IMG/VR virus record: IMGVR_UViG_3300000228_000004
Span: 1-64,000 of that record
From: a virus
Length of the DNA: 64,000 bases
Strand: one strand, 5' to 3'
Part shown: piece by piece, positions 18,951 to 61,147 of the stretch
How the letters are laid out: the number at the start of each line of letters is the position of its first letter
Position numbering within the stretch: the first letter of the stretch is position 1
Made by a program: the position numbers and the translations under genes
Notes under the pieces: model-generated
The model's database searches: none
Told to the model about the DNA's origin: nothing
What the model saw: the letters and a program-made list of their open reading frames with translations, nothing else

Positions 18951-20399
18951 TTAATTACAATTTCTTATTTCTTCGAGTGTAGTTTCTTTAGTAATCTTAC
19001 CGTTTTCGTAAACAATATTCAACATATCTGTTATTGGGAAATCACTTGAACTGAAATCAATTTTATCTGTAAAGTACTCTTTTGTAGCATGATTGAACCA
19101 TAGTGTTACTTTCCCCTTTTTTGATTTCTTTCCTGGGTCTGTTATGGGGTCTTTAAAAACTCCCATCGGAACAAAGAAATGTTCCATCTCAGCGCCCCCG
19201 TCACCGTTGTCTATTGGTGACCCCTCATCAACCGTAATTTCAGAACACTTGATGGCAAAACCGAGAGTATCTCTATTGTGATGTTGCATGAGCCAACCAC
19301 CTGAGCCAAACGATATATTTTCTGAACTATATCCCCTTTTAACAAGGATATCGAGCATTTCTCGCATAGAGTAAGTGTTAATACCATCACCCCAAATAAT
19401 TCTCATTTTATTGAATACCTTAAACCCCTTATTATTCATAGTATATGGCACACATTCTTTTTCCATTATATCCAAAGTCTGTGGTATGATTTTTTTAGGG
19501 TCTCCTGAGTCTGGTCTAATTACAAACACGGGGTAATCAGGGGAATTGATTTTTCTTTGAAATTCCCCGTCTTGCGCACATACGGTTCTCACCGCTTTGA
19601 AGTAATCATAAGAGTCCATAACTGCTGCGATCATAGGTTTTCCTTTATTCATTTCTATGTGTTTCATGATCATTTCAAACTCTTGTTCTTTTCCCCAAGA
19701 AGTAGTTGTGCTGTGTTCCGTGGCACTTATGCTATGTGCAATGGAAGTAGTGTCAGATACTGGGTAGAAGTTTTGGATACCCTTTATAGCTGAAAAGTTG
19801 CCAGTGCCCAAAAACCCAACAGCCAAGTGTGCCATACCACCCACCATCGCGGACTCGGCGCCAGTTGAGCCACGAGCACCAAAATTGTGAAATTGATACA
19901 ACACGAATGGTGTCTCTTGGGTTTTTACGGCGTATTCTTCAAGCATTTTTCTCACGAAATAGCTCCGAGTAGCGACAGTGGAAGTGTACCAAACTGTCAT
20001 AAGGATAGTTTCTAACCAAGATACCACCCAAAAAACATTTTGGTCTGTGCTTTCGACGGTAAAAAGAACATTACCGTTTGGCACAAGAAGCCCCTCTTGA
20101 ACTGCTCTAATTTTTACTGGGAGGTGACCACCGAGTTCTTTGACAATATAATCCCACCCAGTTTTATTGAATTCGATACCATGTGCTTTTGAGAATTCAT
20201 GTGCCTCGTCAACTTCATATTGTTCAATTGGTTCAGTGAAGTGTTCTTTGAGTATATATTGAAGCCCGAAAAATACAGTACTACCGTCTATTGAACGAGC
20301 CTCAGCGTAATCAAACATCGAAACAGTACCGACTGGGTACTGAACTGTGTGAGTGTACTTATAAGAGTCAGCAAGCATTATTCTATTTTCTTTAAACAT
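18951..20399 (-). CDS. nadV: Nicotinamide phosphoribosyltransferase
   Basis: DSYKYTH, FFGLQY, HNFGARG, ATEHS, DSYD, RPDSGDP, WGDG, FGSGG, KDPITDPGKKSKKG. Confidence 0.92.
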   Translation of the reverse strand: MFKENRIMLADSYKYTHTVQYPVGTVSMFDYAEARSIDGSTVFFGLQYILKEHFTEPIEQYEVDEAHEFSKAHGIEFNKTGWDYIVKELGGHLPVKIRAVQEGLLVPNGNVLFTVESTDQNVFWVVSWLETILMTVWYTSTVATRSYFVRKMLEEYAVKTQETPFVLYQFHNFGARGSTGAESAMVGGMAHLAVGFLGTGNFSAIKGIQNFYPVSDTTSIAHSISATEHSTTTSWGKEQEFEMIMKHIEMNKGKPMIAAVMDSYDYFKAVRTVCAQDGEFQRKINSPDYPVFVIRPDSGDPKKIIPQTLDIMEKECVPYTMNNKGFKVFNKMRIIWGDGINTYSMREMLDILVKRGYSSENISFGSGGWLMQHHNRDTLGFAIKCSEITVDEGSPIDNGDGGAEMEHFFVPMGVFKDPITDPGKKSKKGKVTLWFNHATKEYFTDKIDFSSSDFPITDMLNIVYENGKITKETTLEEIRNCN

Positions 20400-51206: not shown

Positions 51207-52388
51207 TCAATGCGTTTTCAACCACTCATCGGTTTGTTTTATTTCAGTATCTGAATCATTTGGATTTCGTTTATACCTATTTCTTGGTCTTCCAGTTTTC
51301 TGTTTCACAGAGACTATTTTTTGTAATTCACAGAAACTGTTTTCACACATCATAACATTTAATTTTCGATCTTCCTCTGGTAAATGGTCAAAAAGTTCAC
51401 TATAATCAATGTGAAGTCCGCGTTTTTCCCATTCAGTCTCTATATTATCCCTGACCCAGAATAATGCTTCTTCGTGGGTCATACCGTCCCTGTCTTCCAT
51501 TAAAAGGTCTATCCCTCTATCACATCCTGGCCCAGACACTACGAATTCATTTTCACTGAACTTGAATTCTGGTATATATGTTAAGTCAACAAATACTTGG
51601 TACGCCAAAAACCCAGCCAATCCTGGGATTTCTCTCAAAATATTGAATACTTCCTCTTGAGTATTCGCCCCTTGAACTCGAGTGGATATATCCGTGTTTT
51701 TAACCCATTGTATCATGTGTATCATCCTAGTTGGCATATTTTTTTCTACACCAACTATTTCATACCCTTCATTTTCTTTAATATACCCCTTTGCTTCTTT
51801 CCAGGTCATTTCTTCTGTGTCAATATGACCTTCTTTTCTTACCTCAACCACCATACCCGAATTCGTGCATTCGTACTCTAATGTTTTAGGGAAAGCCCAA
51901 CTTGCTTTGAGCCCACCAGTGTTAAATGCTGGTGTGAAAAATGCATATTTCGGATTTTCTTTAGCATATTCGATAAATATTTCACGGAACGCGTCTATGT
52001 CTAAATTGTCAAAATCTTCTATGTAACCACCAAATAATTCTGATGTACTAGACTTGTTATATGTTCTGAAGAAGATAGAATTGAGGATCTTTACTTCTAG
52101 TGTTAGATTCGGGTTTGTGCTAATATTCTTAATCAACCATTTAGACTCTCTATCGAGTTCACGCCTTACATTAGTGAATCTATAATTCTTGAACACTTCA
52201 TCGTCTGTCCATTCTTGTTGTGGTAATTTTTCAATTTCTTTTCTTTTGTGTATATTGTGTCTTTCAGACATGAACAAATTATGATATCTTAGCACCTCTT
52301 CATTTAAAATCGGTTTCGCGTTTTTTATCTTTTCGATATCAACACCACAATATCTAATATCGGCTTCCTTTGTTTTCATTAAAACCAT
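51207..52388 (-). CDS. aGPT-Pplase clade 1-like DNA base hypermodification enzyme (HhH glycosylase-like fold)
   Basis: ER..I..RK...WTDD.V...YRFTNVRRELDR, FR.YN, G..GFLAYQV..DL, GPG..RG, EN.FCE..K. Confidence 0.82.
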   Translation of the reverse strand: MVLMKTKEADIRYCGVDIEKIKNAKPILNEEVLRYHNLFMSERHNIHKRKEIEKLPQQEWTDDEVFKNYRFTNVRRELDRESKWLIKNISTNPNLTLEVKILNSIFFRTYNKSSTSELFGGYIEDFDNLDIDAFREIFIEYAKENPKYAFFTPAFNTGGLKASWAFPKTLEYECTNSGMVVEVRKEGHIDTEEMTWKEAKGYIKENEGYEIVGVEKNMPTRMIHMIQWVKNTDISTRVQGANTQEEVFNILREIPGLAGFLAYQVFVDLTYIPEFKFSENEFVVSGPGCDRGIDLLMEDRDGMTHEEALFWVRDNIETEWEKRGLHIDYSELFDHLPEEDRKLNVMMCENSFCELQKIVSVKQKTGRPRNRYKRNPNDSDTEIKQTDEWLKTH

Positions 52389-53548
52389 TCCTCAAGTTTA
52401 AAATTTTGCTTCATATCATAACCAACTGCTTCTAACATAAGGTTAAGTGGTGATATGAAATAATCTTCCCACATTTTACCCCTATCAACATATTTTTCAA
52501 GCCCAGAGTCTGTTATAAAGTCAGAATCTAGAAACCCGATTATATCATCACCTAAAATGTTGGGTTTCTTTAAAATACAATATTTTATTTTATCACTGTC
52601 TGTTATTTTAGGGTATTTGGATAACCCAGTTCTTTCTAAAAAAATATTGTAATTCATTGCCGCCCTTACATTCATTGGCGCAGTTAAAATTTTTCCATTT
52701 TTCTTAGTGGTGAATTTACCTATACCCCCCTTATAATCCAAAGACCCGATACCAGAAACCCTGCATATGTCACCCAATGGTGCTTTGTAGAATTTCTCTT
52801 CTATCTCAGATATAGAAGCAATCGTTTCTTTTGCATCGTTATCTAGAATTACATTCACCATATCTTTGAGATATTTCCTACAAAAGGGCGGAGTAGAAGA
52901 TCGTACTATCTCCAACCCAGTGACCGCCAATTTAGGGTCATCGACAAGTATAGACCCTTCGTCCCAAACGGCACGCAAAGCATATTTTTTCTTTGCAACA
53001 AACATCCCTTTATCGGCAATTTTTTCAAGTTTTGCCCCGATGGGCTTGGCACTAAATGCGTTGAAATTGTCTGAGAAAGAATCTATGTATTCTTGGACCC
53101 ATACATCGAGGTATTTATGATCAAAATTAACAAGTTTATCAAGTATTTCGTGATTATTAGCGGTGTCGAATTTTTTTACTAATTCATTAAGAGTAAAATA
53201 CACAGAGTCGGTGTCACCATAAACTACAAAGTCAATATTGGTATTAAGAACACTTCGTAACTTCCCATTTACATAATTCGCCAATCCTTGTATAAATATC
53301 CTACCGTTCCCAGTGATACTTGCAGCAACATCTCGATTGAATAGTAAAAAGTGTATATTTGCTAGAGCACCATATAATGAGTTCATCGAAATCTTTAGAG
53401 CCATCTGATATACATCGAAATAAGCAATTCTAGTGTCTATATATTTCATATCTGCCGTTAAACCACTAACATCCAAATCGTTGATTTTATCAATCGTCAT
53501 TGAACCGTCTTCTATACCATCGTAAATTTCTTCTATTGTCATGTTCAC
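52379..53548 (-). CDS. gp43: Family B DNA polymerase, C-terminal piece (fingers helix, palm, thumb)
   Basis: QMALKISMNSLYG, YGDTDS, KKKYA, GLEIVRSSTP. Confidence 0.92.
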   Translation of the reverse strand: MNMTIEEIYDGIEDGSMTIDKINDLDVSGLTADMKYIDTRIAYFDVYQMALKISMNSLYGALANIHFLLFNRDVAASITGNGRIFIQGLANYVNGKLRSVLNTNIDFVVYGDTDSVYFTLNELVKKFDTANNHEILDKLVNFDHKYLDVWVQEYIDSFSDNFNAFSAKPIGAKLEKIADKGMFVAKKKYALRAVWDEGSILVDDPKLAVTGLEIVRSSTPPFCRKYLKDMVNVILDNDAKETIASISEIEEKFYKAPLGDICRVSGIGSLDYKGGIGKFTTKKNGKILTAPMNVRAAMNYNIFLERTGLSKYPKITDSDKIKYCILKKPNILGDDIIGFLDSDFITDSGLEKYVDRGKMWEDYFISPLNLMLEAVGYDMKQNFKLEEWF

Positions 53549-53959
53549 CTCTTAATTAAGTTAAATTATAGTAAAAATGACTTAATTAAAACTTAATTAA
53601 CAATCATTAAAGAACCGTCACTCGACGGTATTATTCTTTTCTACTTTACCGCAGTAATTTTCCTCAGCTGTCACATTTTATGCTTAACAAAAATACCATC
53701 AATCTTGCTCTTCCCAATTACCCCAATCGTTATTCTGATATGCATTAAACCCTTCTGACCATAATATGGCTAGAACTCGTTTCGAAATGTCCTTGTAAAC
53801 ATTAAATGAGTCAGCTTCAAAAAGGGTCACAAAGGGCGAGTGTCAATTTTTCTCGAACCCCGACCACTTTCAAGGCATAGATCAGCAACTCTTTCAGCTT
53901 CTTCCTGAAGCATTTTTTCAAATTGAGTAAATGTATTCACGCCACATCCTCACAATTCA

Positions 53960-54268
53960 TTAAGCTACTTTCTTTTCAGCCATATAAGTTTCTATTTCTT
54001 CTTGAGTAAGAACTCCTTCTGAGTATATAATACCAGAATAACCGTCACTAGCAGCATTATTTTTAGCGTTGTAAATGTTTGTTATAAGTGAACCGATACT
54101 TTTAGGGCTTCTGTTGATTTTCTTGTTACCCTTTTCATGTTCCCAAGACTGCCCTACCTCTAACACATAACTGAAATATTTGATCAACTCTTCTAGAGTA
54201 CCGATTTCTGAGGGATAATCTCTTCCTGATTTTCTCTGGTTGATTTTGAATATTTTTACTTTTGCCAT
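53960..54268 (-). CDS. Hypothetical early protein
   Basis: GTLEELIKYFSY.LEVG.SW..EKGNKKIN..PK motif; follows a promoter. Confidence 0.65.
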   Translation of the reverse strand: MAKVKIFKINQRKSGRDYPSEIGTLEELIKYFSYVLEVGQSWEHEKGNKKINRSPKSIGSLITNIYNAKNNAASDGYSGIIYSEGVLTQEEIETYMAEKKVA

Positions 54269-54300
54269 TTTAGACCCTTTATGTTTAATTATTATATAAT

Positions 54301-54333
54301 ATTATACCGTAAGTTAGCTTAAACCTTGCTTAA
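54301..54333 (-). promoter_or_regulatory. Conserved early promoter
   Basis: TTTAAGCTAACTTACGGTATAAT; part of a direct repeat with 57066..57129. Confidence 0.78.
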
Positions 54334-54577
54334 TTTTAAAAAATTCCACTTATTTATGCATCGACTTCTTTCAATTTACCCTGAAGTACCTCATATATAA
54401 GCATGCGTCTTCTAGGAAGTTTAATTCTTTTTGAGATATGCCGAAATCTCAAGAAGTTTCGTTAATCTCTTTTATGGTCATTTCACCATTTTCTATTTTC
54501 AGACAAAGTTCATTGAAATCCATTTAATAAACCTTACATTATTTTCATCTATTATACCAAAAAATATTAAAGTTTGC

Positions 54578-54817
54578 TTAATACTGGTCTTCACCTGGAT
54601 ACTGATTTCCAAAACCTTGGATGGTACTGACTCCTTCTGAATTTAGGATTATCCTAATTCTTCTGTAAATTTCGTTTGTCACATCTATCGAATTTACGTC
54701 GAATATTGAAATGATCTGAAGAACATTTACCTTAGTTTGGCCACAGCCGTCTAAATATACATCGACTACCCTTTCAGCTTCGGCTTGTATCATTTGTTCA
54801 AGTTCAGAAATACGCAT
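54578..54817 (-). CDS. Hypothetical protein (a degenerate paralog lies near 53825-53940)
   Basis: GAGGGG RBS; EQMIQAEAERV versus EKMLQEEAERV in the remnant. Confidence 0.55.
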   Translation of the reverse strand: MRISELEQMIQAEAERVVDVYLDGCGQTKVNVLQIISIFDVNSIDVTNEIYRRIRIILNSEGVSTIQGFGNQYPGEDQY

Positions 54818-54903
54818 TTGCCCCTCGATAAAAATTTATAATATTTACACCGAATATAGTTTATTGAGATTAATAACCATTCGTGATCTCATTTCTTTGT
54901 TTT

Positions 54904-55359
54904 TTAAAGTTCTTCCTCTATCGCGGTTTCTTCTATCTTACATATAAACAGTGCACCCTCTTCTTTACCTTCCTCTCCTGTATAAAAACCACTTGTGATA
55001 AAATAATTACAAGTTTCACTGTCGTATATAACCCACTTCCACTTAGTCACCGTTTTCGGTTTTATGCGATAAGAATACTCAGCATATAGATGCTGAGTGA
55101 ACATATCCAAATCAGTGAGTGTAGTTATTTCCCACTCTCCGTGCAGTGTATTGAGCCATTCAATTTGCGTTTTGTCATCTACGAATTGCTTTCGTAGTGA
55201 TGCATATTCATCGTCTAGTATGTAGATTAAATCCTTATCCCAGCTTGGTAATGTTGTTACATCCCAAAGTTCATCAGTTGGCATCTTACACCATACTATT
55301 GTTCCAACTGGACTATTTGCGAATTTAATCATCTCTTCTTTATGTACTCTGCCCATCAT
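54904..55359 (-). CDS. Tandem paralog family member 3
   Basis: H..E...A..P.GT.VW, YI.DD...RKQF.D, YRIKPKTVTKWKWVI, ICKIEET. Confidence 0.7.
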   Translation of the reverse strand: MMGRVHKEEMIKFANSPVGTIVWCKMPTDELWDVTTLPSWDKDLIYILDDEYASLRKQFVDDKTQIEWLNTLHGEWEITTLTDLDMFTQHLYAEYSYRIKPKTVTKWKWVIYDSETCNYFITSGFYTGEEGKEEGALFICKIEETAIEEEL

Positions 55360-55805
55360 TCAACTTCCTTTCTTGTTTCTTCTATCTTACATATAAAAAA
55401 TGCGTTACCATTACCTTCCTCTCCTGTATAAAAACCACTTGTGATAAAATAATTACGAGTTTCACTGTCGTATATAACCCACTTCCACTTAGTCACCGTT
55501 TTTGGTTTTATGCGGTAACAGTCTGATGTATGATTCCACAAGAACCCATCAAATTTTAACAGATTTTCAAAATTGTTTGGAACCCATTTACTTGAACACT
55601 CATCATATATCTCAATCTGTGATGCATTATCTATGAATTGCTTTCGTATTTCTGAGTGCTCGTCATCTACGATGTAGTGGAAATTATTATACCATCCTGG
55701 TTCTACTACCTTAACCCACTCTGTGTGCCTTTTTTCCCTATACCAAACATTTGTACCATCAGGTCTATCCGCCCATCTATTAATTTCTCTTCTATGGTGT
55801 TTCAT
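55356..55805 (-). CDS. Tandem paralog family member 2
   Basis: Same motifs as its neighbours. Confidence 0.7.
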   Translation of the reverse strand: MKHHRREINRWADRPDGTNVWYREKRHTEWVKVVEPGWYNNFHYIVDDEHSEIRKQFIDNASQIEIYDECSSKWVPNNFENLLKFDGFLWNHTSDCYRIKPKTVTKWKWVIYDSETRNYFITSGFYTGEEGNGNAFFICKIEETRKEVE

Positions 55806-56266
55806 ACTTCAAACTCTCTTTCAGTTTCTTCGATTTTACAAACAAATATATGGAATTTACTTTTTGAACCATCTACATAGTAACCATTTGATATTCTATG
55901 TTCATTCGTTAAGATATCTTTTATAACCCACTTCCACATAGTTACCGTTTTCGGTTTTACCCGATACCTATGCCCCATATCAAGAAATTTCGTTAGGCTA
56001 TCTAGCTCCCGTCTATCAGTTGCTACCCACTTATCATCGATATAGTGGTGCCACTCGACCCTTGTCGGGTCATCAAGGAATTGCTTTCGTATTTTAGCGT
56101 GTTTGTCATCTACTATGTATAAGAGATCTGTATTCCAACTCGGGTGGGCTGTTAGTATCCACTCCAGTTCATTTTGTCTTTTAAACCATACACCAGTTGC
56201 TTCTGGTGCGTCAGCCCAGCGTATTATTTCACTTCTATGCTTTTTCATCTTTTGAATATCCCCCAT
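55802..56266 (-). CDS. Tandem paralog family member 1
   Basis: Same motifs as its neighbours. Confidence 0.7.
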   Translation of the reverse strand: MGDIQKMKKHRSEIIRWADAPEATGVWFKRQNELEWILTAHPSWNTDLLYIVDDKHAKIRKQFLDDPTRVEWHHYIDDKWVATDRRELDSLTKFLDMGHRYRVKPKTVTMWKWVIKDILTNEHRISNGYYVDGSKSKFHIFVCKIEETEREFEV

Positions 56267-56472
56267 GATTTTAATAGCGTATATTCCAGTTCGGTGATAT
56301 CACTTATTTCTCCCCGAGACAGTGAGATTCACTAATCTTATATCCTGCTTCCTGGAGCTTTTTAATCGCTTTTTCTATTTTCATTTTTTATCCTCTGAAT
56401 CTTTCAGGGCATACTCTGTTCCCGTTCCGTACCTGTTTGTCTTTTGCTCGATACCTTTGTACATCAGGTATA

Positions 56473-56736
56473 TCAGTCCAATTTTAATTCAAATTTGGTA
56501 CAACCATTGCAGTATTCAAGTATCATTGAACAATCACCGTCTATAATGCTGCAATATTCGATAGACATGAACCCTTCACAGTTTTTGCAGTTTATGCTTT
56601 TATCAAACCCATCATAGTTTTCTATTGTGAAATCTACCACATCATGTAACATCAAACTCATAACCCTTGGTTGGTCAACCAATATAAATTTATTTTTTAT
56701 TTCATCTACTGTCATCTTATATCTCCAAAAGTTCAC
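56473..56736 (-). CDS. Small Cys-rich protein
   Basis: CKNC...C...C...C..C. Confidence 0.5.
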   Translation of the reverse strand: MNFWRYKMTVDEIKNKFILVDQPRVMSLMLHDVVDFTIENYDGFDKSINCKNCEGFMSIEYCSIIDGDCSMILEYCNGCTKFELKLD

Positions 56737-56945
56737 TATATAAATTTAATCACTTTTTATAGTGATACCTCTGCTTTTTCGTGTATACCTGCCTCTTTAA
56801 GCCTTTTAACCACTAACTTCTTTCACCGTTTTTATATCTATCGTGTTAGATATATCAGGGTATATAGCGAACACGCCATACCATACCCAAAGTACTGTTT
56901 GGATAAATGGTATTCAGGCAAATTCACGATTTCAATAATTTCATA

Positions 56946-57074
56946 TTAAACGCCGAATTTTGCCCTAAAATCATTTAACATTTCAAGTAAGTCTTCTACT
57001 TGAAATTGATTCAACCATTCTCTAGTCAATCCGAACTCATTTGCTAATGTATTCACTACTTGTGATTTTGCCAT
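56946..57074 (-). CDS. 42-aa early peptide MAKSQVVNTLANEFGLTREWLNQF...
   Basis: Open frame directly after a promoter-RBS cassette. Confidence 0.55.
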   Translation of the reverse strand: MAKSQVVNTLANEFGLTREWLNQFQVEDLLEMLNDFRAKFGV

Positions 57075-57106
57075 TTTAGACCCTTTATGTTTAATTGTTA
57101 TAATAT

Positions 57107-57141
57107 ATTATACCGCAAGTTAGCTTAAAGTAAGGTTAAAC
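57107..57141 (-). promoter_or_regulatory. Conserved early promoter containing the stop codon of the middle PolB piece
   Basis: GTTTAACCTTACTTTAAGCTAACTTGCGGTATAAT. Confidence 0.8.
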
Positions 57142-58401
57142 AGTCTTCAATTTAGCTTGTAATGCTTTATACATTAACATTTTTCTCTTTACTTCTTTCC
57201 TAGTAGAATAAATGTTCCCTACTATTTCGGGTATTATACCCTCATTGTCACGCCTAAAGAAAGCATTCATGCCAAAAGCAACATCATATTTATGCGTAAC
57301 TTCTCTAATTTCAGCAAGGCTATCAGGATTAAGGTACACTTCTTCATGCTCGTGTGTGTGATACTTAGCTCGTAAATTTTTCAATTCTTGAGGCAACTCA
57401 TATTCATTTATATATGTTTCTGGTGACATATTAAAAGCGCGCATACCAAGTAACGGGTACATTGAGTTGACGTCGACTGAAACCAACCAATTATGTTTAC
57501 CCTTTTGTGGTTGTCGAACATAACCACCAATAATTGTTTTATCTAGGCGGCTATGTCTGTCGAACGGCATTACAAGTCCCTCTTTCATAGCAAGGTTAGT
57601 CAGATATTGCCCCCAAGGTTTAACAGTGCCGAAGGAGTCATCCATATTAATACCCATCATTGAAGATAAAATTTTCATAAGCTCTATTAACTTCAGTTTA
57701 TCCTCTAGTTTTTTCAGGAGCAAAACATCTTGTATAGAATATTCTATGAATAAGTCTTTATCCCCGTGATAGAAATCTACTATATCATCAAACTTCCCAT
57801 AGTCAACCTTACCCTCACCAACACCAAGTTCCACTTTAACGATGTTGTCCAATGCGTATGACACTTGTGGCTTAGTTACGAACTTTTTGTATGCTTTCAT
57901 CATATCGATTAGATAAATTCCTTCCCAGTCATAGTTCATCCCTTCCATCGTTTTTATCTCTTTAACTTTATTAATTGGGGATAATCTTCTATAATTCACC
58001 CCGTCCAATTTCATTGCTCTGTTAGTGATATATGGGAAGTCGAATGAATCACCATTCCAAGCAGTTATAACCGTCGGTTTTAAATTTTCAAGTAATTTAA
58101 TAAAATCTTTAAAAAGTTCTTTTTCATCATAGTAGTGTTTGAATATCAAATTATCATATTTCTTAAATTTGGTTTCGTCGACCATTTTGTCTAAACTTAG
58201 AATTATTATCTTGTTGCTATAACTGTCGTATATCTGTATTTGTGAAACTGTCTTTTCAGCAAGCTGAGGATCTGGGAATGACTTATCTGCGTAATAACAT
58301 GAATTTTTAAATAAAACCCATTCATTCAATTCTTCATCGAATACTTCATAGTCAGTATAATCTTCAGCAAGAATCTCCGACATTTTCATTATTTTTTCCA
58401 T
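57136..58401 (-). CDS. gp43: Family B DNA polymerase, middle piece (ExoII/III, motif A, first fingers helix)
   Basis: FPDP, AWNGDSFDFPYI, SYALD, YSIQDV, GGYV, SVDVNSMYP, NMSPET, RK..K. Confidence 0.92.
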   Translation of the reverse strand: MEKIMKMSEILAEDYTDYEVFDEELNEWVLFKNSCYYADKSFPDPQLAEKTVSQIQIYDSYSNKIIILSLDKMVDETKFKKYDNLIFKHYYDEKELFKDFIKLLENLKPTVITAWNGDSFDFPYITNRAMKLDGVNYRRLSPINKVKEIKTMEGMNYDWEGIYLIDMMKAYKKFVTKPQVSYALDNIVKVELGVGEGKVDYGKFDDIVDFYHGDKDLFIEYSIQDVLLLKKLEDKLKLIELMKILSSMMGINMDDSFGTVKPWGQYLTNLAMKEGLVMPFDRHSRLDKTIIGGYVRQPQKGKHNWLVSVDVNSMYPLLGMRAFNMSPETYINEYELPQELKNLRAKYHTHEHEEVYLNPDSLAEIREVTHKYDVAFGMNAFFRRDNEGIIPEIVGNIYSTRKEVKRKMLMYKALQAKLKTV

Positions 58402-59058
58402 CTTTCATTTCCTCCATTAATTTTCTTTCAGAATGTTTCTTTTTTACTGCTTCAGATATTCTTTTCCTTTGTTCAGGGGTTCCTTTTCTTATCAGAATTA
58501 CTTTCGACAATATTTTTATACCTTTTGTCTCTTTCTTCCTTTTGGGCGTCCGTGAGGTTTTCCGTATATACATATACTGAATCTGATCGTCGCCTAATCG
58601 TTTCCTCTGAAGCCTTCGTACCTCTTCTTTTCTCAATCATTTTTTCTACGCGTTCTTCTAATTGCTCTTTAGAAAGGGATTCGATATATTTTTTCTGTGC
58701 TTTTGAATTTACACTTCTTCGCCAACTACTCTTATTCATCTCCGAAAGAAATTTCCCTTGTTCTTTAGCCCAAGTTTCTCTTATCAACGCAAAATCTCTA
58801 TTATTAGTAACATACCTATTCTGATTTTCACTTTGCATTAACACACAATTCAATAAGTATTCCTCTTTCATTCGTGTAAATTTTCACTAATGACTTATGA
58901 GCTATAAAATGTTCTCTAGCAGTTAAGTAAACTAAGTTTGAATTTTCGTTATCACCGCCCATACAAGATGGAACAATATGATGAACTTCACCATACCCTT
59001 CAAAACAAATTTCTCTTCTCTTTTTAACCAATTCTTGGTAAATTTTCAAATAATCCAT
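58364..59058 (-). pseudogene. MobE-like HNH homing endonuclease with two frameshifts, between PolB pieces
   Basis: Y.KIY..L...EVHHIVP.C.GG.....NLV.LTAREHFIAH..L.KIY, continued in two other frames. Confidence 0.75.
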
Positions 59059-59098
59059 AAATACTCCTTTTAAGTAATTAATGCTCGATATCTAAAAA

Positions 59099-59512
59099 CT
59101 AACTTTTCACCCTAACTCGTATTTCATAGTCTCTTCCGTACTTATTTTCTTCAACAGTTTCTATATCGAAAAACCATATTCGCATATCGTTGTTTTTTCC
59201 ATTATTGAAAAAATTATCTCTTATGTGTTTGTACTCTGGTCTCTGTCCGCCGTATAGTTCTTTACCGAGTGAATCCATCAACCCCTTAAACTCTTTTTCT
59301 TCTTTTGAAGAAGTAAATTCCCTTTTAGACAATTTCACGGATGGGTCTAGTATATATGAAAATTCACCATTTTTATTTTTTTCAAAGTATTCGTATTTTG
59401 GTGATATTTCTTCTATTCTTACTTGGTTCGTGTCAGTGTTCCTTGTTCTGCAAAAGTATTTAAAATCACTTTTCCATACTTTTTCATATTGTTCATTTTC
59501 GTAATCTCTCAT
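59099..59512 (-). CDS. gp43: Family B DNA polymerase, N-terminal piece (N-domain + ExoI)
   Basis: Ends Y.HIRDNF...MRIWFFDIET; FPDP, which normally follows, is in the next piece. Confidence 0.8.
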   Translation of the reverse strand: MRDYENEQYEKVWKSDFKYFCRTRNTDTNQVRIEEISPKYEYFEKNKNGEFSYILDPSVKLSKREFTSSKEEKEFKGLMDSLGKELYGGQRPEYKHIRDNFFNNGKNNDMRIWFFDIETVEENKYGRDYEIRVRVKS

Positions 59513-59781
59513 TATATACCACCGAATAGTTTTCTTAATATGATCTGATAATTCCTTCCCTTTCTAGTACTATAATCTATCGCAGTGACGACCACCATAG
59601 AATAAGGGACTGAAAGGTTTGGATGTGATATCCAAGAGCTATATAATTCACCCAAACCAAATTTTATAGAAGCATCTTTTATTTGTGAAAGATAAAAATT
59701 TATTTTTCTAAAATTAAACATAACAAATAACCAGCCCATCCTAGAAGAAATTTTCCTAAAAAACATTATTTTCTCTTTCAT
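59512..59781 (-). CDS. Hypothetical protein
   Basis: Between the helicase and polB, with coupled ends. Confidence 0.45.
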   Translation of the reverse strand: MKEKIMFFRKISSRMGWLFVMFNFRKINFYLSQIKDASIKFGLGELYSSWISHPNLSVPYSMVVVTAIDYSTRKGRNYQIILRKLFGGI

Positions 59782-59788
59782 ACTAATC

Positions 59789-61147
59789 CTAATTGAAATT
59801 TATTACTGAAGTATCCATATCTCGTTCAGTCGCTTTTTGTAAAACATGTGTATTCGCTTTCGCCACTTGTTGCTCGACACCATCTTCATCAAGGTCACTG
59901 AACCTGACAGTAGAAAAATCCGTTTCAACTAAATGCGATGAAAGCATACCTGTGTTCCTATTCTTTAAGAACTTAATTAGGCTTTGATTCATTTCCCTTA
60001 ATTGTGGGTTAGAAAGTAACGCGATTACATTGTCAGCGGTCTGTATAACACCAAGTGAGTCAGCGATAGAGTCCAACCCTGACTCTAAGTTATCAAAACT
60101 CCCTCTGTTTAACTGGGCAGCAGTTAGTGCGATTATATCCTCTTTCTTGCTAAAACCATGTAATTCTTCCGCGATAGACTTGTAATAGGCATACCCACCA
60201 GCCGTACCTAAAGAAACCCTTGTTGACGCCATTAAGCCTATGTAATCAATACATATTAAGTCTGGCGTGAAACCATCCTTTGACTTCAATTCATTTAAAA
60301 GTGCTTTTAATGTCAATGTACTGAAAGTACCAGATGGAAAATCCTTAATGACCAAATTCCCAGCTATTTCTGAAATGGATTTCATCCTACTTTCAAATTC
60401 TTTTCTATCTAATTTACCCAAATCGTTAGCAGGGTGGTTCAAAAGATTAGCGTCTATCCTTCTAGCGATTTCCATATCAGTCATTTCCAGTGAAATGAAT
60501 AAAACATTCTTCCCAGATAAGTAAGCCGAACTTGCCGCCGACATAAGGATCGCACTTTTACCGCCGTGTGAAGGTGCTACGATTAAATTCAATGTTTTAG
60601 ACCTCAACCCACTACCAAGTGCCAAATCTACCGACGGGAGCCCGATACTAAGCCCAGATATTCTTTGAGTATAGTAATCATATCTTTCTAGTGTGGCTTT
60701 TTCTTCCTTGTATTTCATCCCTATATCATAGTCAAATGAAATACTCAGTGCTTTCTCTATCATACCAATAATAGGTTCGAATGGCTGGTCATTTTCTATT
60801 AAATCGGCTGATTTAAAAATTGCTTCAGATAATTCTTCTTTTTGGATATATTTTTCAGTTTGGTCAATTAAAAATTCTTTATTTTCAACAGATGGTTCAA
60901 GAATAACTTCTTTGAATTGCCCAATAACTTTAAGTTTGATATTCTCACTCACCTCACCTGAATTTTTAATAAAAATACCAAGTTCTTTAGGGTTTGGGGT
61001 AGCATCGTATTCTTTGTTATATTGTACTAGAGCCTTAAATATCTCAGAATTTTCTAAGTTCGAAAAATGTGAACTCTTTAAGTGCGGGAAAACCTTTGCG
61101 AAATATTCTGGGTCAACTATCAAATTTTTCAGTATTACACTTTCCAC
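59789..61147 (-). CDS. gp41: Replicative DnaB-like helicase
   Basis: APSHGGKS, ISLEM, RRIDAN, IDYIGLM, AEEL, AAQLNR, ADS, KNR. Confidence 0.92.
   Translation of the reverse strand: MESVILKNLIVDPEYFAKVFPHLKSSHFSNLENSEIFKALVQYNKEYDATPNPKELGIFIKNSGEVSENIKLKVIGQFKEVILEPSVENKEFLIDQTEKYIQKEELSEAIFKSADLIENDQPFEPIIGMIEKALSISFDYDIGMKYKEEKATLERYDYYTQRISGLSIGLPSVDLALGSGLRSKTLNLIVAPSHGGKSAILMSAASSAYLSGKNVLFISLEMTDMEIARRIDANLLNHPANDLGKLDRKEFESRMKSISEIAGNLVIKDFPSGTFSTLTLKALLNELKSKDGFTPDLICIDYIGLMASTRVSLGTAGGYAYYKSIAEELHGFSKKEDIIALTAAQLNRGSFDNLESGLDSIADSLGVIQTADNVIALLSNPQLREMNQSLIKFLKNRNTGMLSSHLVETDFSTVRFSDLDEDGVEQQVAKANTHVLQKATERDMDTSVINFN

Follow-up and report, generated by a model that had tools for sequence, protein, structure and literature searches.

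The closest precedent for the locus described here is the nrdA gene of phage Aeh1, which is split by mobE (Crona et al. 2011, PMC3045599). Aeh1 (nrdA-a/mobE/nrdA-b), like our locus, has a gene for a MobE-family HNH endonuclease inserted between two parts of the coding sequence of an essential enzyme. Both loci are cut through an active-site region, in both the downstream piece begins within the 3' end of the endonuclease gene, and neither involves RNA or protein splicing. The upstream piece of NrdA has a basic C-terminal tail and the downstream piece an acidic N-terminal tail, again as here; the tails are essential, and their deletion costs about 2000-fold in activity (PMC3045599). A different split is found in Aeromonas phages 44RR2.8t and 25, whose T4-type family B DNA polymerase (PolB) consists of two parts, 43A and 43B, with the cut at the fingers tip (Petrov et al. 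2010, reviewed in PMC2988022). The two products co-purify and polymerase activity is present (PMC2988022), and Pfu polymerase engineered with a fingers-tip split also works (PMC3061061). Lastly, the fractured genes of Dassa et al. 2009 (PMC2677866) have the order gene half, short peptide, free-standing endonuclease gene, short peptide, gene half, an order also seen at our locus. Two of these precedents, the two-piece gp43 and the mobE-split nrdA, had been described correctly in an earlier note on this DNA (PMC2988022, PMC3045599).

The window (the whole stretch analysed, 64,000 nucleotides of a 110-kb record of an uncultured T4-like phage) encodes PolB in three minus-strand ORFs, which we call P1, P2 and P3 (Table 1); break 1 separates P1 from P2, and break 2 separates P2 from P3. 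We think it quite likely that this only PolB is made as three separately translated chains that assemble without RNA or protein splicing, that break 2 is old, and that break 1 came from a mobile cassette. The polymerase is a member of the T4 gp43-type family B, with exonuclease motifs and polymerase motifs A, B and C all intact (6/6). ExoI (DIE) is in P1, ExoII (WNGDSFDFPY), ExoIII (YSIQDV) and motif A (DVNSMYP) are in P2, and motifs B (KISMNSLYG) and C (YGDTDS) are in P3. P1 (137 aa) reads ...FFDIET and then an 18-aa C-terminal tail, and P2 (421 aa) has a 41-aa extension ahead of FPDP. In P2, Pfam detects DNA_pol_B_exo1 (E 9e-20) together with the beginning of DNA_pol_B, and the matches to RB69 gp43 cover residues 172-437 (P2) and 548-896 (P3). 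The AF2 model of P2 has a mean pLDDT of 89.5 and its best fold matches are RB69 and T4 gp43; in the model of P1 alone, residues 1-100 fold as the N-terminal domain (pLDDT > 93) and residues 101-137 are disordered. P2 and P3 each have their own Shine-Dalgarno sequence (SD) and ATG, with GGAGG 9 nt upstream of the P2 ATG. For P3, the ATG at 53542, behind the SD AAGAGGTG, is a likelier start than the GTG at 53548. These findings bear out the earlier note's description of a PolB in three pieces, the first stopping just past ExoI (DIET), the second running from FPDP to the first fingers helix and the third beginning before KxxxNSxYG; missing from it are the spread of break 2 through the whole clade and, at break 1, the widespread and probably mobile cassette with its conserved tail and extension.

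Table 1. Features of the three-piece PolB locus (positions in the window)
Feature	Position	Strand	Basis or remark
P1: N-terminal domain, ExoI strand D116-I117-E118, tail VEEN...EIRVRVKS	59099..59512	-	ORF; fused to P2 in L006/L007/L008
Cassette-specific part of P1 tail, ~14 aa KYGRDYEIRVRVKS, basic strand alternating hydrophobic/basic	59102..59143	-	absent from unsplit alleles
Relic second copy of ExoI codons, FLDIEH-stop, in frame right behind P1 stop	59078..59098	-	read from sequence
Truncated MobE-family HNH homing-endonuclease ORF, 76 aa, HNH domain only, own SD	58828..59058	-	phrog_655, Aeh1 MobE
Frameshifted endonuclease remainder (58473-58871 and 58364-58636)	58364..58871	-	tblastn; 3' end overlaps P2 start by 38 nt
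P2: acidic N-extension 1-41, remaining exonuclease domain (ExoII, ExoIII), second half of N-terminal domain, palm motif A, first fingers helix	57136..58401	-	ORF, Pfam, RB69, AF2
P2 N-extension, 41 aa, pI 4.1; core DYEVFDEELNEWVLF, predicted beta-hairpin	58279..58401	-	AF2, motif conservation
Promoter-like 23-mer copy 1 (TTTAAGCTAACTTGCGGTATAAT), 7 nt past P2 stop	57107..57129	-	repeat search
Break 2 insert: three paralogues of ~150 aa (54904-56266), clade-conserved 102-aa ORF (53960-54268)	53543..57135	-	ORFs
Promoter-like 23-mer copy 2, ahead of 102-aa ORF	54301..54323	-	repeat search
Terminator-like hairpin	53614..53629	-	followed by TATAAT 53565-53570 and SD AAGAGGTG 53546-53553 ahead of P3
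P3: second fingers helix (motif B), palm motif C, KKKYAL motif, thumb	52379..53542	-	ORF, Pfam, RB69 match

Break 1 does contain a decayed HNH gene, as had been claimed. The 76-aa ORF matches phrog_655 (E 2e-30) and Aeh1 MobE (44% identity, E 1e-20), and weaker homology to the intact L052b and to Aeh1 MobE is found in two further frames, 1 and 2 (tblastn). The frameshifts are not assembly errors, because contigs of independent runs from 2012, 2014 and 2019 span both frameshift places without gaps or indels. A DIE-coding 9-mer lies at +6/+7 after the P1 stop in the window and in lineages L052 and L054, compared to 0.06 expected. By eye, the 9-mer of L053 overlaps the P1 stop, and L050 has a degenerate one at +5. 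Relatives L006, L007 and L008 lack break 1 and have P1 and P2 as one piece. Relative L005 has break 1 too; its HNH gene has been deleted and just a 50-nt gap is left.

The basic C-terminal tail of P1 and the acidic N-terminal extension of P2 are missing from unsplit homologues, and among split alleles their polarity is constant (pI 8.4-10.6 for the tail and 4.1-4.9 for the N-extension). Between the window and L005, pS and pN are 0.50 and 0.088 in the tail and 0.475 and 0.042 in the N-extension. These values (pN/pS ~0.09-0.18) indicate purifying selection at the protein level, and thus that the junction peptides are translated. The pS is ~0.5 in the tails compared to ~0.85 in the flanks, and the cassette DNA is 84-91% identical compared to ~72% for the flanks; no co-conversion tract past the cassette edges is visible in a sliding-window identity plot. 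An AU test rejects the window and L005 as a clade (p 0.011), a result that recombination within the gene could confound. In AF2, the hairpin of the N-extension is formed by strands E18-22 and E27-31. We also considered the tail and N-extension as duplicates of neighbouring polymerase strands and rejected this, as local alignment scores were no better than those of shuffles.

The arrangement of basic C-terminal tail, HNH gene and acidic beta-hairpin N-extension recurs in at least five other lineages, and many further uncultured phages carry the cassette. In L050, L052, L053 and L054, the tail equivalents end in ...VKIRKK and the endonuclease gene between tail and N-extension is intact (L053, L054), split or deleted. 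At least 41 protein clusters terminate in DIE plus a basic tail, and the N-extension motif is kept in eight other PolB lineages. No cultured example of break 1 was found. Xanthomonas phage BUDD and phage C48C1, the best isolate matches for P0048, a polymerase with the N-extension, have P1 fused, and so does jumbo phage MIJ3, a match for P0184, a stand-alone P1-type protein. A P1-type gene is absent from Aeh1 and phiAS5, and one annotated MobE of phiAS5 (hit H84) has unrelated genes on either side and is not inside a split gene.

There are also differences from Aeh1. The host gene there is nrdA and here polB, and here the endonuclease gene has decayed. Many lineages share the conserved PolB tails, which travel with the cassette; the tails of Aeh1 NrdA matched nothing in the databases. 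The data do not support homology between these two tail sets (shuffle p 0.11 and 0.23); they share composition and a short YEV[YF] string only, and an HMM of the N-extension fails to retrieve NrdA-b (E above 10). A motif count that seemed striking was discarded as post hoc, since its patterns had been tuned after the Aeh1 sequence was seen.

Other readings would turn the pieces of PolB into fewer chains. If break 1 were a self-splicing group I intron carrying the HNH ORF, P1 and P2 would be joined in the RNA. HNH-bearing group I introns are well known in phage polymerase genes, and the insert of ~215 nt between homologous codons in L005 is intron-sized. We nevertheless consider an intron very improbable: a search for Rfam families at E up to 10 found none at 52000-60000 of the window or at 7700-8300 of L005, which lacks the endonuclease ORF, and the gaps in L005 and L050 are just 50-83 nt. 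In addition, P2 has its own translation signals, substitutions in both flanking peptides are mainly synonymous, and the peptides are conserved as protein where the DNA of the lineages is unrelated. Nor do we expect, except with very low probability, that tail and N-extension are halves of an active or barely degenerate split intein that ligates the pieces by protein trans-splicing. This idea draws on the true split intein in uvsX of the same genome, a fractured-gene example that has lost its endonuclease gene, on the IntC-like length of the N-extension and its ending in ...S-[C/S/T]-Y, and on the existence of an atypical PolB split intein with a 15-aa IntN (PMC10189870). However, TIGR01443 and TIGR01445 both match the uvsX pieces, and at E up to 10 neither matches either junction peptide. 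The added part of the tail starts without Cys or Ser. The Asn expected at the end of an intein, ahead of the +1 residue, is not conserved among the N-extensions: only the window and L005 have N before S-[C/S/T]-Y, with E, S, D or Q elsewhere. Moreover, both peptides together (~55 aa) are far smaller than a HINT domain. Unlike those of fractured split inteins (PMC2677866), the PolB junction peptides are without intein motifs, nucleophiles and size, and thus the pieces are not ligated. The searches, the selection on the peptides and the separate translation starts all agree with the earlier claim that neither intron nor intein is present. Ribosomal bypass of the gap, as in T4 gene 60, could also yield a single chain, and both the gap of exactly 50 nt in L005 and the likeness of the basic tail to the nascent-peptide signal of gene 60 fit this possibility. 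The bypass sequence of gene 60 and the mobA endonuclease gene travel as one cassette in T4, which counts in the same direction. We find bypass extremely unlikely, since the window, L052, L053 and L054 have gaps of 697-1002 nt, far longer than any known hop. The frames of P1 and P2 differ, there are stops in both, and no matching take-off and landing codons were seen by eye at the two junctions.

Two readings concern the function of the pieces. The [D/E]-Y-E motif of the N-extension could conceivably stand in for ExoI, in which case P1 would be dispensable or decaying and P2 and P3 would form a two-piece enzyme, with [D/E]-Y-E-V as the ExoI surrogate and a proofreading site that is not split. 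MAFFT aligns TDYEV of the N-extension under LDIET, YEVFD is a beta-strand in AF2, and the Y-E motif is kept across N-extensions, with R in place of Y in L005. We think this unlikely. That change in L005 speaks against the motif, as does its first residue, which is E in P0054, P0075 and L050, and the similarity between the N-extension and the ExoI region is no better than that of shuffles (p ~0.5). The P1 ORF stays intact, with an invariant DIE, in 41 clusters and six lineages, and its first 100 residues are confidently folded. DIE is likewise invariant in a 60-sequence alignment in which the P1 bodies are just 14-25% identical. It is also highly doubtful that the pieces are a dead gene and that the working polymerase lies in the unsequenced ~29% of the genome. 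CheckV puts the 110-kb record at ~71% completeness, which leaves room for such a gene; the record holds no second PolB, no PolA and no intact polB elsewhere, the last having been named in the earlier note as a finding that would speak against its reading. Every motif is preserved, and in P1, P2 and P3 alike pN is much lower than pS. The same architecture is found in independent samples spanning seven years, the order of helicase, small ORF and polymerase is the same in relatives, and one member of the break 2 clade whose genome is complete (155 kb, terminal repeats, CheckV 100%) has the split 43A plus 43B form as its only PolB.

We favor three unligated chains, which could have arisen as follows. 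Break 2 would be an old, clade-wide split at the fingers tip, whose gap later became a landing place for accessory genes. Insertion of a MobE-family HNH cassette between ExoI (DIE) and FPDP would have created break 1, giving P1 a stop behind a short basic strand (...EIRVRVK; ...VKIRKK elsewhere) and P2 a new SD and ATG before an acidic beta-hairpin extension (...DYEVFDEE..W.). The oppositely charged tails probably hold the pieces together without splicing. Strand and hairpin might pair as a small intermolecular sheet, a pairing predicted from charge pattern and position only. This sheet, together with the natural contacts (insertion of the ExoI strand in the exonuclease sheet, and packing between both halves of the N-terminal domain), could dock P1 on P2. 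We infer that the pieces assemble into an active heterotrimer whose proofreading site comes from two chains, with D116 and E118 of P1 completing the site of ExoII and ExoIII in P2. In the window, the endonuclease gene would since have decayed, leaving a fixed split that can no longer move on from this genome.

A broader proposal, on which we are evenly divided, is that tail, MobE-type gene and hairpin are one portable "cut-and-clasp" cassette, functionally analogous to a split intein but without splicing. Such a cassette would home into the DIE...FPDP loop of very different PolBs (T4-like and jumbo-phage), its own docking module would make insertion at the active site harmless, and the module would remain fixed once the endonuclease gene has decayed or been lost by deletion.

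Break 2 is common to the whole clade, more distant relatives are contiguous there, and alignment with 43A and 43B of 44RR2.8t places the cut at the fingers tip, between the two long helices. Compared with the 44RR site it is shifted upstream by ~10 residues. As in 44RR2.8t and 25, the pieces are ~500 and ~390 aa with their own translation starts. Since intermediate lineages are unsplit, break 2 is independent of the 44RR split. Unlike 44RR2.8t and 25, this phage has its polymerase in three pieces, cut once more after ExoI, and as much as 3.6 kb of cargo genes lie in the gap. Insert length among relatives varies between 1.2 kb and over 3.6 kb, and the L021 insert includes a GIY-YIG gene that is seg-like, as is the gap gene of phage 25. 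The window has 3.59 kb with about nine small ORFs and a 78-nt repeat (54246-54323 and 57052-57129, 87% identical), in line with the ~3.6 kb of accessory genes and two promoter cassettes described earlier. The window contains 10 copies of the 23-nt core of the repeat, every one of them on the minus strand, compared to 0 expected. The earlier note was mistaken in having the first cassette provide the stop codon of P2: the TAA (57136-57138) stands 7 nt away from the repeat, and in relatives that lack the promoter cassette P2 ends 0-3 residues from the corresponding column of the alignment.

If three chains do make up this enzyme, a replicative polymerase tolerates two simultaneous cuts, one of them through the proofreading site. 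The single case of Aeh1 NrdA, with its "tails as antidote to fragmentation", would become a recurrent and sequence-conserved one. The antidote idea is directly testable, because there are dozens of natural variants with the endonuclease gene intact, decayed or deleted. The short, charge-complementary pair of tail and hairpin might also serve as a small natural protein-complementation tag. In current annotation, the ~130-aa P1 proteins are listed as "hypothetical" and carry no Pfam domain, and P2-type proteins look like N-terminally short polymerases.

The IMG/VR record behind the window, which is 110.5 kb long, about 71% complete and T4-like in gene content, has no PolB or PolA signal beyond a single family B polymerase (PolB) spread over three ORFs, all on the minus strand. 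We refer to the N-terminal, middle and C-terminal pieces as P1, P2 and P3; P1 and P2 are separated just after ExoI (break 1), and P2 and P3 at the fingers tip (break 2). The nearest cultured polymerases are only ~36% identical to this one. P2 matches Pfam exo1 (E 9e-20) and aligns with residues 172-437 of RB69 gp43, and P3 aligns with RB69 residues 548-896. The first 41 residues of P2 have no counterpart in ordinary polymerases.

Coordinates of the polymerase pieces and associated features (window positions unless a locus or record is named)
Feature	Position	Strand	Remarks
P1	59099-59512	-	137 aa; ...FFDIET, then 18 further residues at the C-terminus
P2	57136-58401	-	421 aa; 41-residue N-extension, then FPDP, ExoII, ExoIII, motif A, first fingers helix
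P3	52379-53542	-	if the ATG behind Shine-Dalgarno (SD) AAGAGGTG is the start; motif B, motif C, thumb
Relic ExoI codons	59078-59098	-	FLDIEH-stop in frame, directly behind the P1 stop
23-mer TTTAAGCTAACTTACGGTATAAT	633, 11923, 14271, 16873, 18326, 21738, 40260, 45122, 54301, 57107	-	10 copies in the window; 0 expected
Conserved break 2 ORF, window	53960-54268	-	~102-111 aa; motif ...EVGQSWEHEKGNKKINR.PKSI...NNAA.GYSG
Same ORF, relatives	L005 9353-9688; L006 8586-8915; L007 5135-5470; L025 762-1097		
Three tandem paralogues in break 2	54904-56266	-	~150 aa each; common ...YRIKPKTVTKWKWVIYDSE...FICKIEET
Fourth, shorter paralogue	L049 6-353	-	just past the window end
GIY-YIG endonuclease gene	L021 1396-2082	+	228 aa; seg-like, NUMOD-type repeats
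uvsX/recA in two ORFs	L049 363-920 and 1012-1902 (G000:C1 64363-65902)	-	split intein
Motif B/C part of PolB	G005 (record of L052) 19729-19920		the frame is just 178 aa long

Break 2 is old and common to the clade. In all six of the closest relatives (loci L005, L006, L007, L008, L021 and L025; P2 identity 68-84%), a gene of the type of 43A, the first half of the two-piece gp43 of Aeromonas phages, ends 0-3 residues from one alignment column (...MLMY.AL.AK..), and a 43B-type gene restarts after a gap wherever the contig extends far enough. This gap is of variable length, 1.2 kb at the shortest and more than 3.6 kb at the longest. More distant relatives, and also a 52%-identical sister polymerase (P0006), are contiguous at the site. 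The L008 record is complete (155 kb, terminal repeats, CheckV 100%) and its two-piece PolB is its only PolB; thus, the two-piece enzyme must be the replicase. The 43A/43B cut of Aeromonas phage 44RR2.8t falls in the same fingers-tip region, but in the alignment the cut described here lies about ten residues upstream of it, indicating that break 2 is a split of a known kind that arose independently. The products of 43A and 43B are reported to co-purify, with polymerase activity (PMC2988022), and a Pfu polymerase engineered to be split near the finger tip is functional too (PMC3061061).

The break 2 gap of L021 contains a GIY-YIG endonuclease gene that mirrors seg43 of Aeromonas phage 25. Most clade members have in break 2 a conserved ORF without a match in Pfam or PHROG; it may be mere cargo or encode a resident partner for the split polymerase. 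The three tandem paralogues in the window belong to a multi-copy family.

At break 1 sits a mobile endonuclease cassette rather than an intron or an intein. The close relatives L006, L007 and L008 are uninterrupted here (DIET-MNDDPTDKS-FPDP). In the window, the P1 tail and stop codon are followed by the relic FLDIEH-stop, a 76-aa HNH ORF, the remainder of the HNH gene in two other frames, GGAGG, 9 nt, and the ATG of P2. The 76-aa ORF matches phrog_655 (E 2e-30) and is 44% identical to MobE of phage Aeh1. Matching contigs in runs from 2012, 2014 and 2019 show no indels in this stretch, and the frameshifts are therefore real. L005 has the same break 1, with the HNH gene almost wholly deleted. 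Rfam searches of the window and L005 were empty at E up to 10. The junction peptides likewise had no match to intein models. These same models detect a true split intein in uvsX of this genome, which served as a positive control (IntN CGTNK..., IntC ...ISHN|S; NCBIfam intein_Nterm and intein_Cterm match both pieces).

The cassette is widespread. A search with P2 found polymerases that start just before FPDP and have the same N-extension: a leader of ~15 aa, [D/E]YE[V/I][F/Y/W]DE, W[V/C] and S-x-Y. In every locus examined, the upstream ORF is ~130 aa and has DIE and a short tail at its end, and the last part of the tail is an alternating hydrophobic/basic strand (...VKIRKK, ...IKVRKK; ...EIRVRVK in the window). 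Between the two ORFs, loci L053 and L054 contain an intact phrog_655 HNH gene (292 and 253 aa), the gene in L052 is frameshift-split as it is in the window, and only 83 and 50 nt are left in L050 and L005. In loci that retain the endonuclease gene, the 3' end of this gene runs 8-41 nt into P2, and mobE of Aeh1 overlaps nrdA-b likewise. Identity between the P1 bodies of different lineages is only 14-25%, yet D-I-E is invariant. In a profile search, stand-alone P1-like proteins fell into at least 85 clusters, at least 41 of which end in DIE and such a tail (up to 32 aa), on contigs as long as 367 kb. Members of one large family end in ...FFDIETDMQPFAVSSQHMVKIRKK. No cultured phage with break 1 was found; in the cultured jumbo-phage relatives of the large family, MIJ3 (inspected) and PA5oct and CBB (by annotation), P1 is continuous with the remainder of the polymerase.

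Comparison of the window with L005 gives a pS of 0.50 and a pN of 0.088 for the P1 tail, and 0.475 and 0.042 for the P2 N-extension. Because the changes are mostly synonymous, both the tail and the extension are under constraint and are translated. At synonymous sites they have diverged about half as much as the polymerase codons on either side (pS about 0.85), and DNA identity is 84-91% in the cassette and ~72% in the flanks. In a tree of the polymerase core, the window groups with L005, L006 and L007 with good support, and branching order inside the group is not resolved. A sister relationship of the two split alleles, window and L005, is rejected by an AU test (p 0.011), which means that the cassette was either transferred laterally or removed by recombination; within-gene recombination could affect this test.

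Beyond the P1 stop, a second 9-mer coding for DIE occurs at +6 or +7 in the window and also in L052 and L054 (expected 0.06); by eye, the copy in L053 overlaps the P1 stop and that in L050 is degenerate. The tail-coding segment is flanked by a ~15-nt direct repeat of target-site codons. The relic copy may be a leftover of the first formation of the cassette, or may be tied to the endonuclease target or to immunity.

We infer that the three pieces assemble into a working enzyme. In every lineage, the P1 tails are basic (pI 8.4-10.6) and the P2 N-extensions acidic (pI 4.1-4.9). AF2 gives a confident fold for P2 (pLDDT 89.5), with the N-extension as a beta-hairpin of YEVFD and EWVLF at moderate confidence. 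When P1 is modelled alone, residues 1-100 take the fold of the N-terminal domain (pLDDT above 93), and the ExoI strand and tail (residues 101-137) are disordered. In the complex, the ExoI strand of P1 would enter the exonuclease sheet of P2, the N-terminal domain halves of the two pieces would pack as in RB69 gp43, and the acidic hairpin could gain a strand from the basic tail, thereby clasping the cut loop. In Aeh1 NrdA, a mobE-associated C-tail (pI 10.4) and N-tail (pI 3.8) are kept in the mature proteins, and without the tails activity is ~2000-fold lower; the authors predicted that such tails may occur elsewhere, yet would be hard to find (PMC3045599). The Aeh1 and PolB tails have the same charge order and a YEVY string in common. 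Neither profile search nor shuffle tests supported homology, so we treat them as analogous.

Two-piece gp43 is already known, as are endonuclease-split genes with tails. The literature that we searched describes no three-piece PolB, no cut through the proofreading site, and no conserved, widely spread cassette of tail, endonuclease and extension.

There is no terminator-like site between P1 and P2. The promoter-like 23-nt motif of the phage, probably its early or middle promoter consensus and without a canonical -35 element, occurs twice in break 2. A terminator-like hairpin, TATAAT and an SD lie directly before P3; with the motifs in break 2, these indicate that P3 probably has its own promoter. 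The earlier note's proposal that the first promoter cassette supplies the P2 stop codon was not borne out.

Two fused-type relatives on contigs of 1-1.3 kb (P0003 and P0004) depart from the consensus just past FPDPQ.ADKP and then end, which hints at a further insertion site, a few codons past break 1, or at artefacts of the contig ends. P0007, a 744-aa polymerase of an unsplit sister lineage, has an apparent in-frame insertion directly after motif C (YSDTDS|VVGDTLIH...) that looks like an intein. Lastly, the short frame with motifs B and C in the record of L052 suggests that P3 of that phage may be cut once more.
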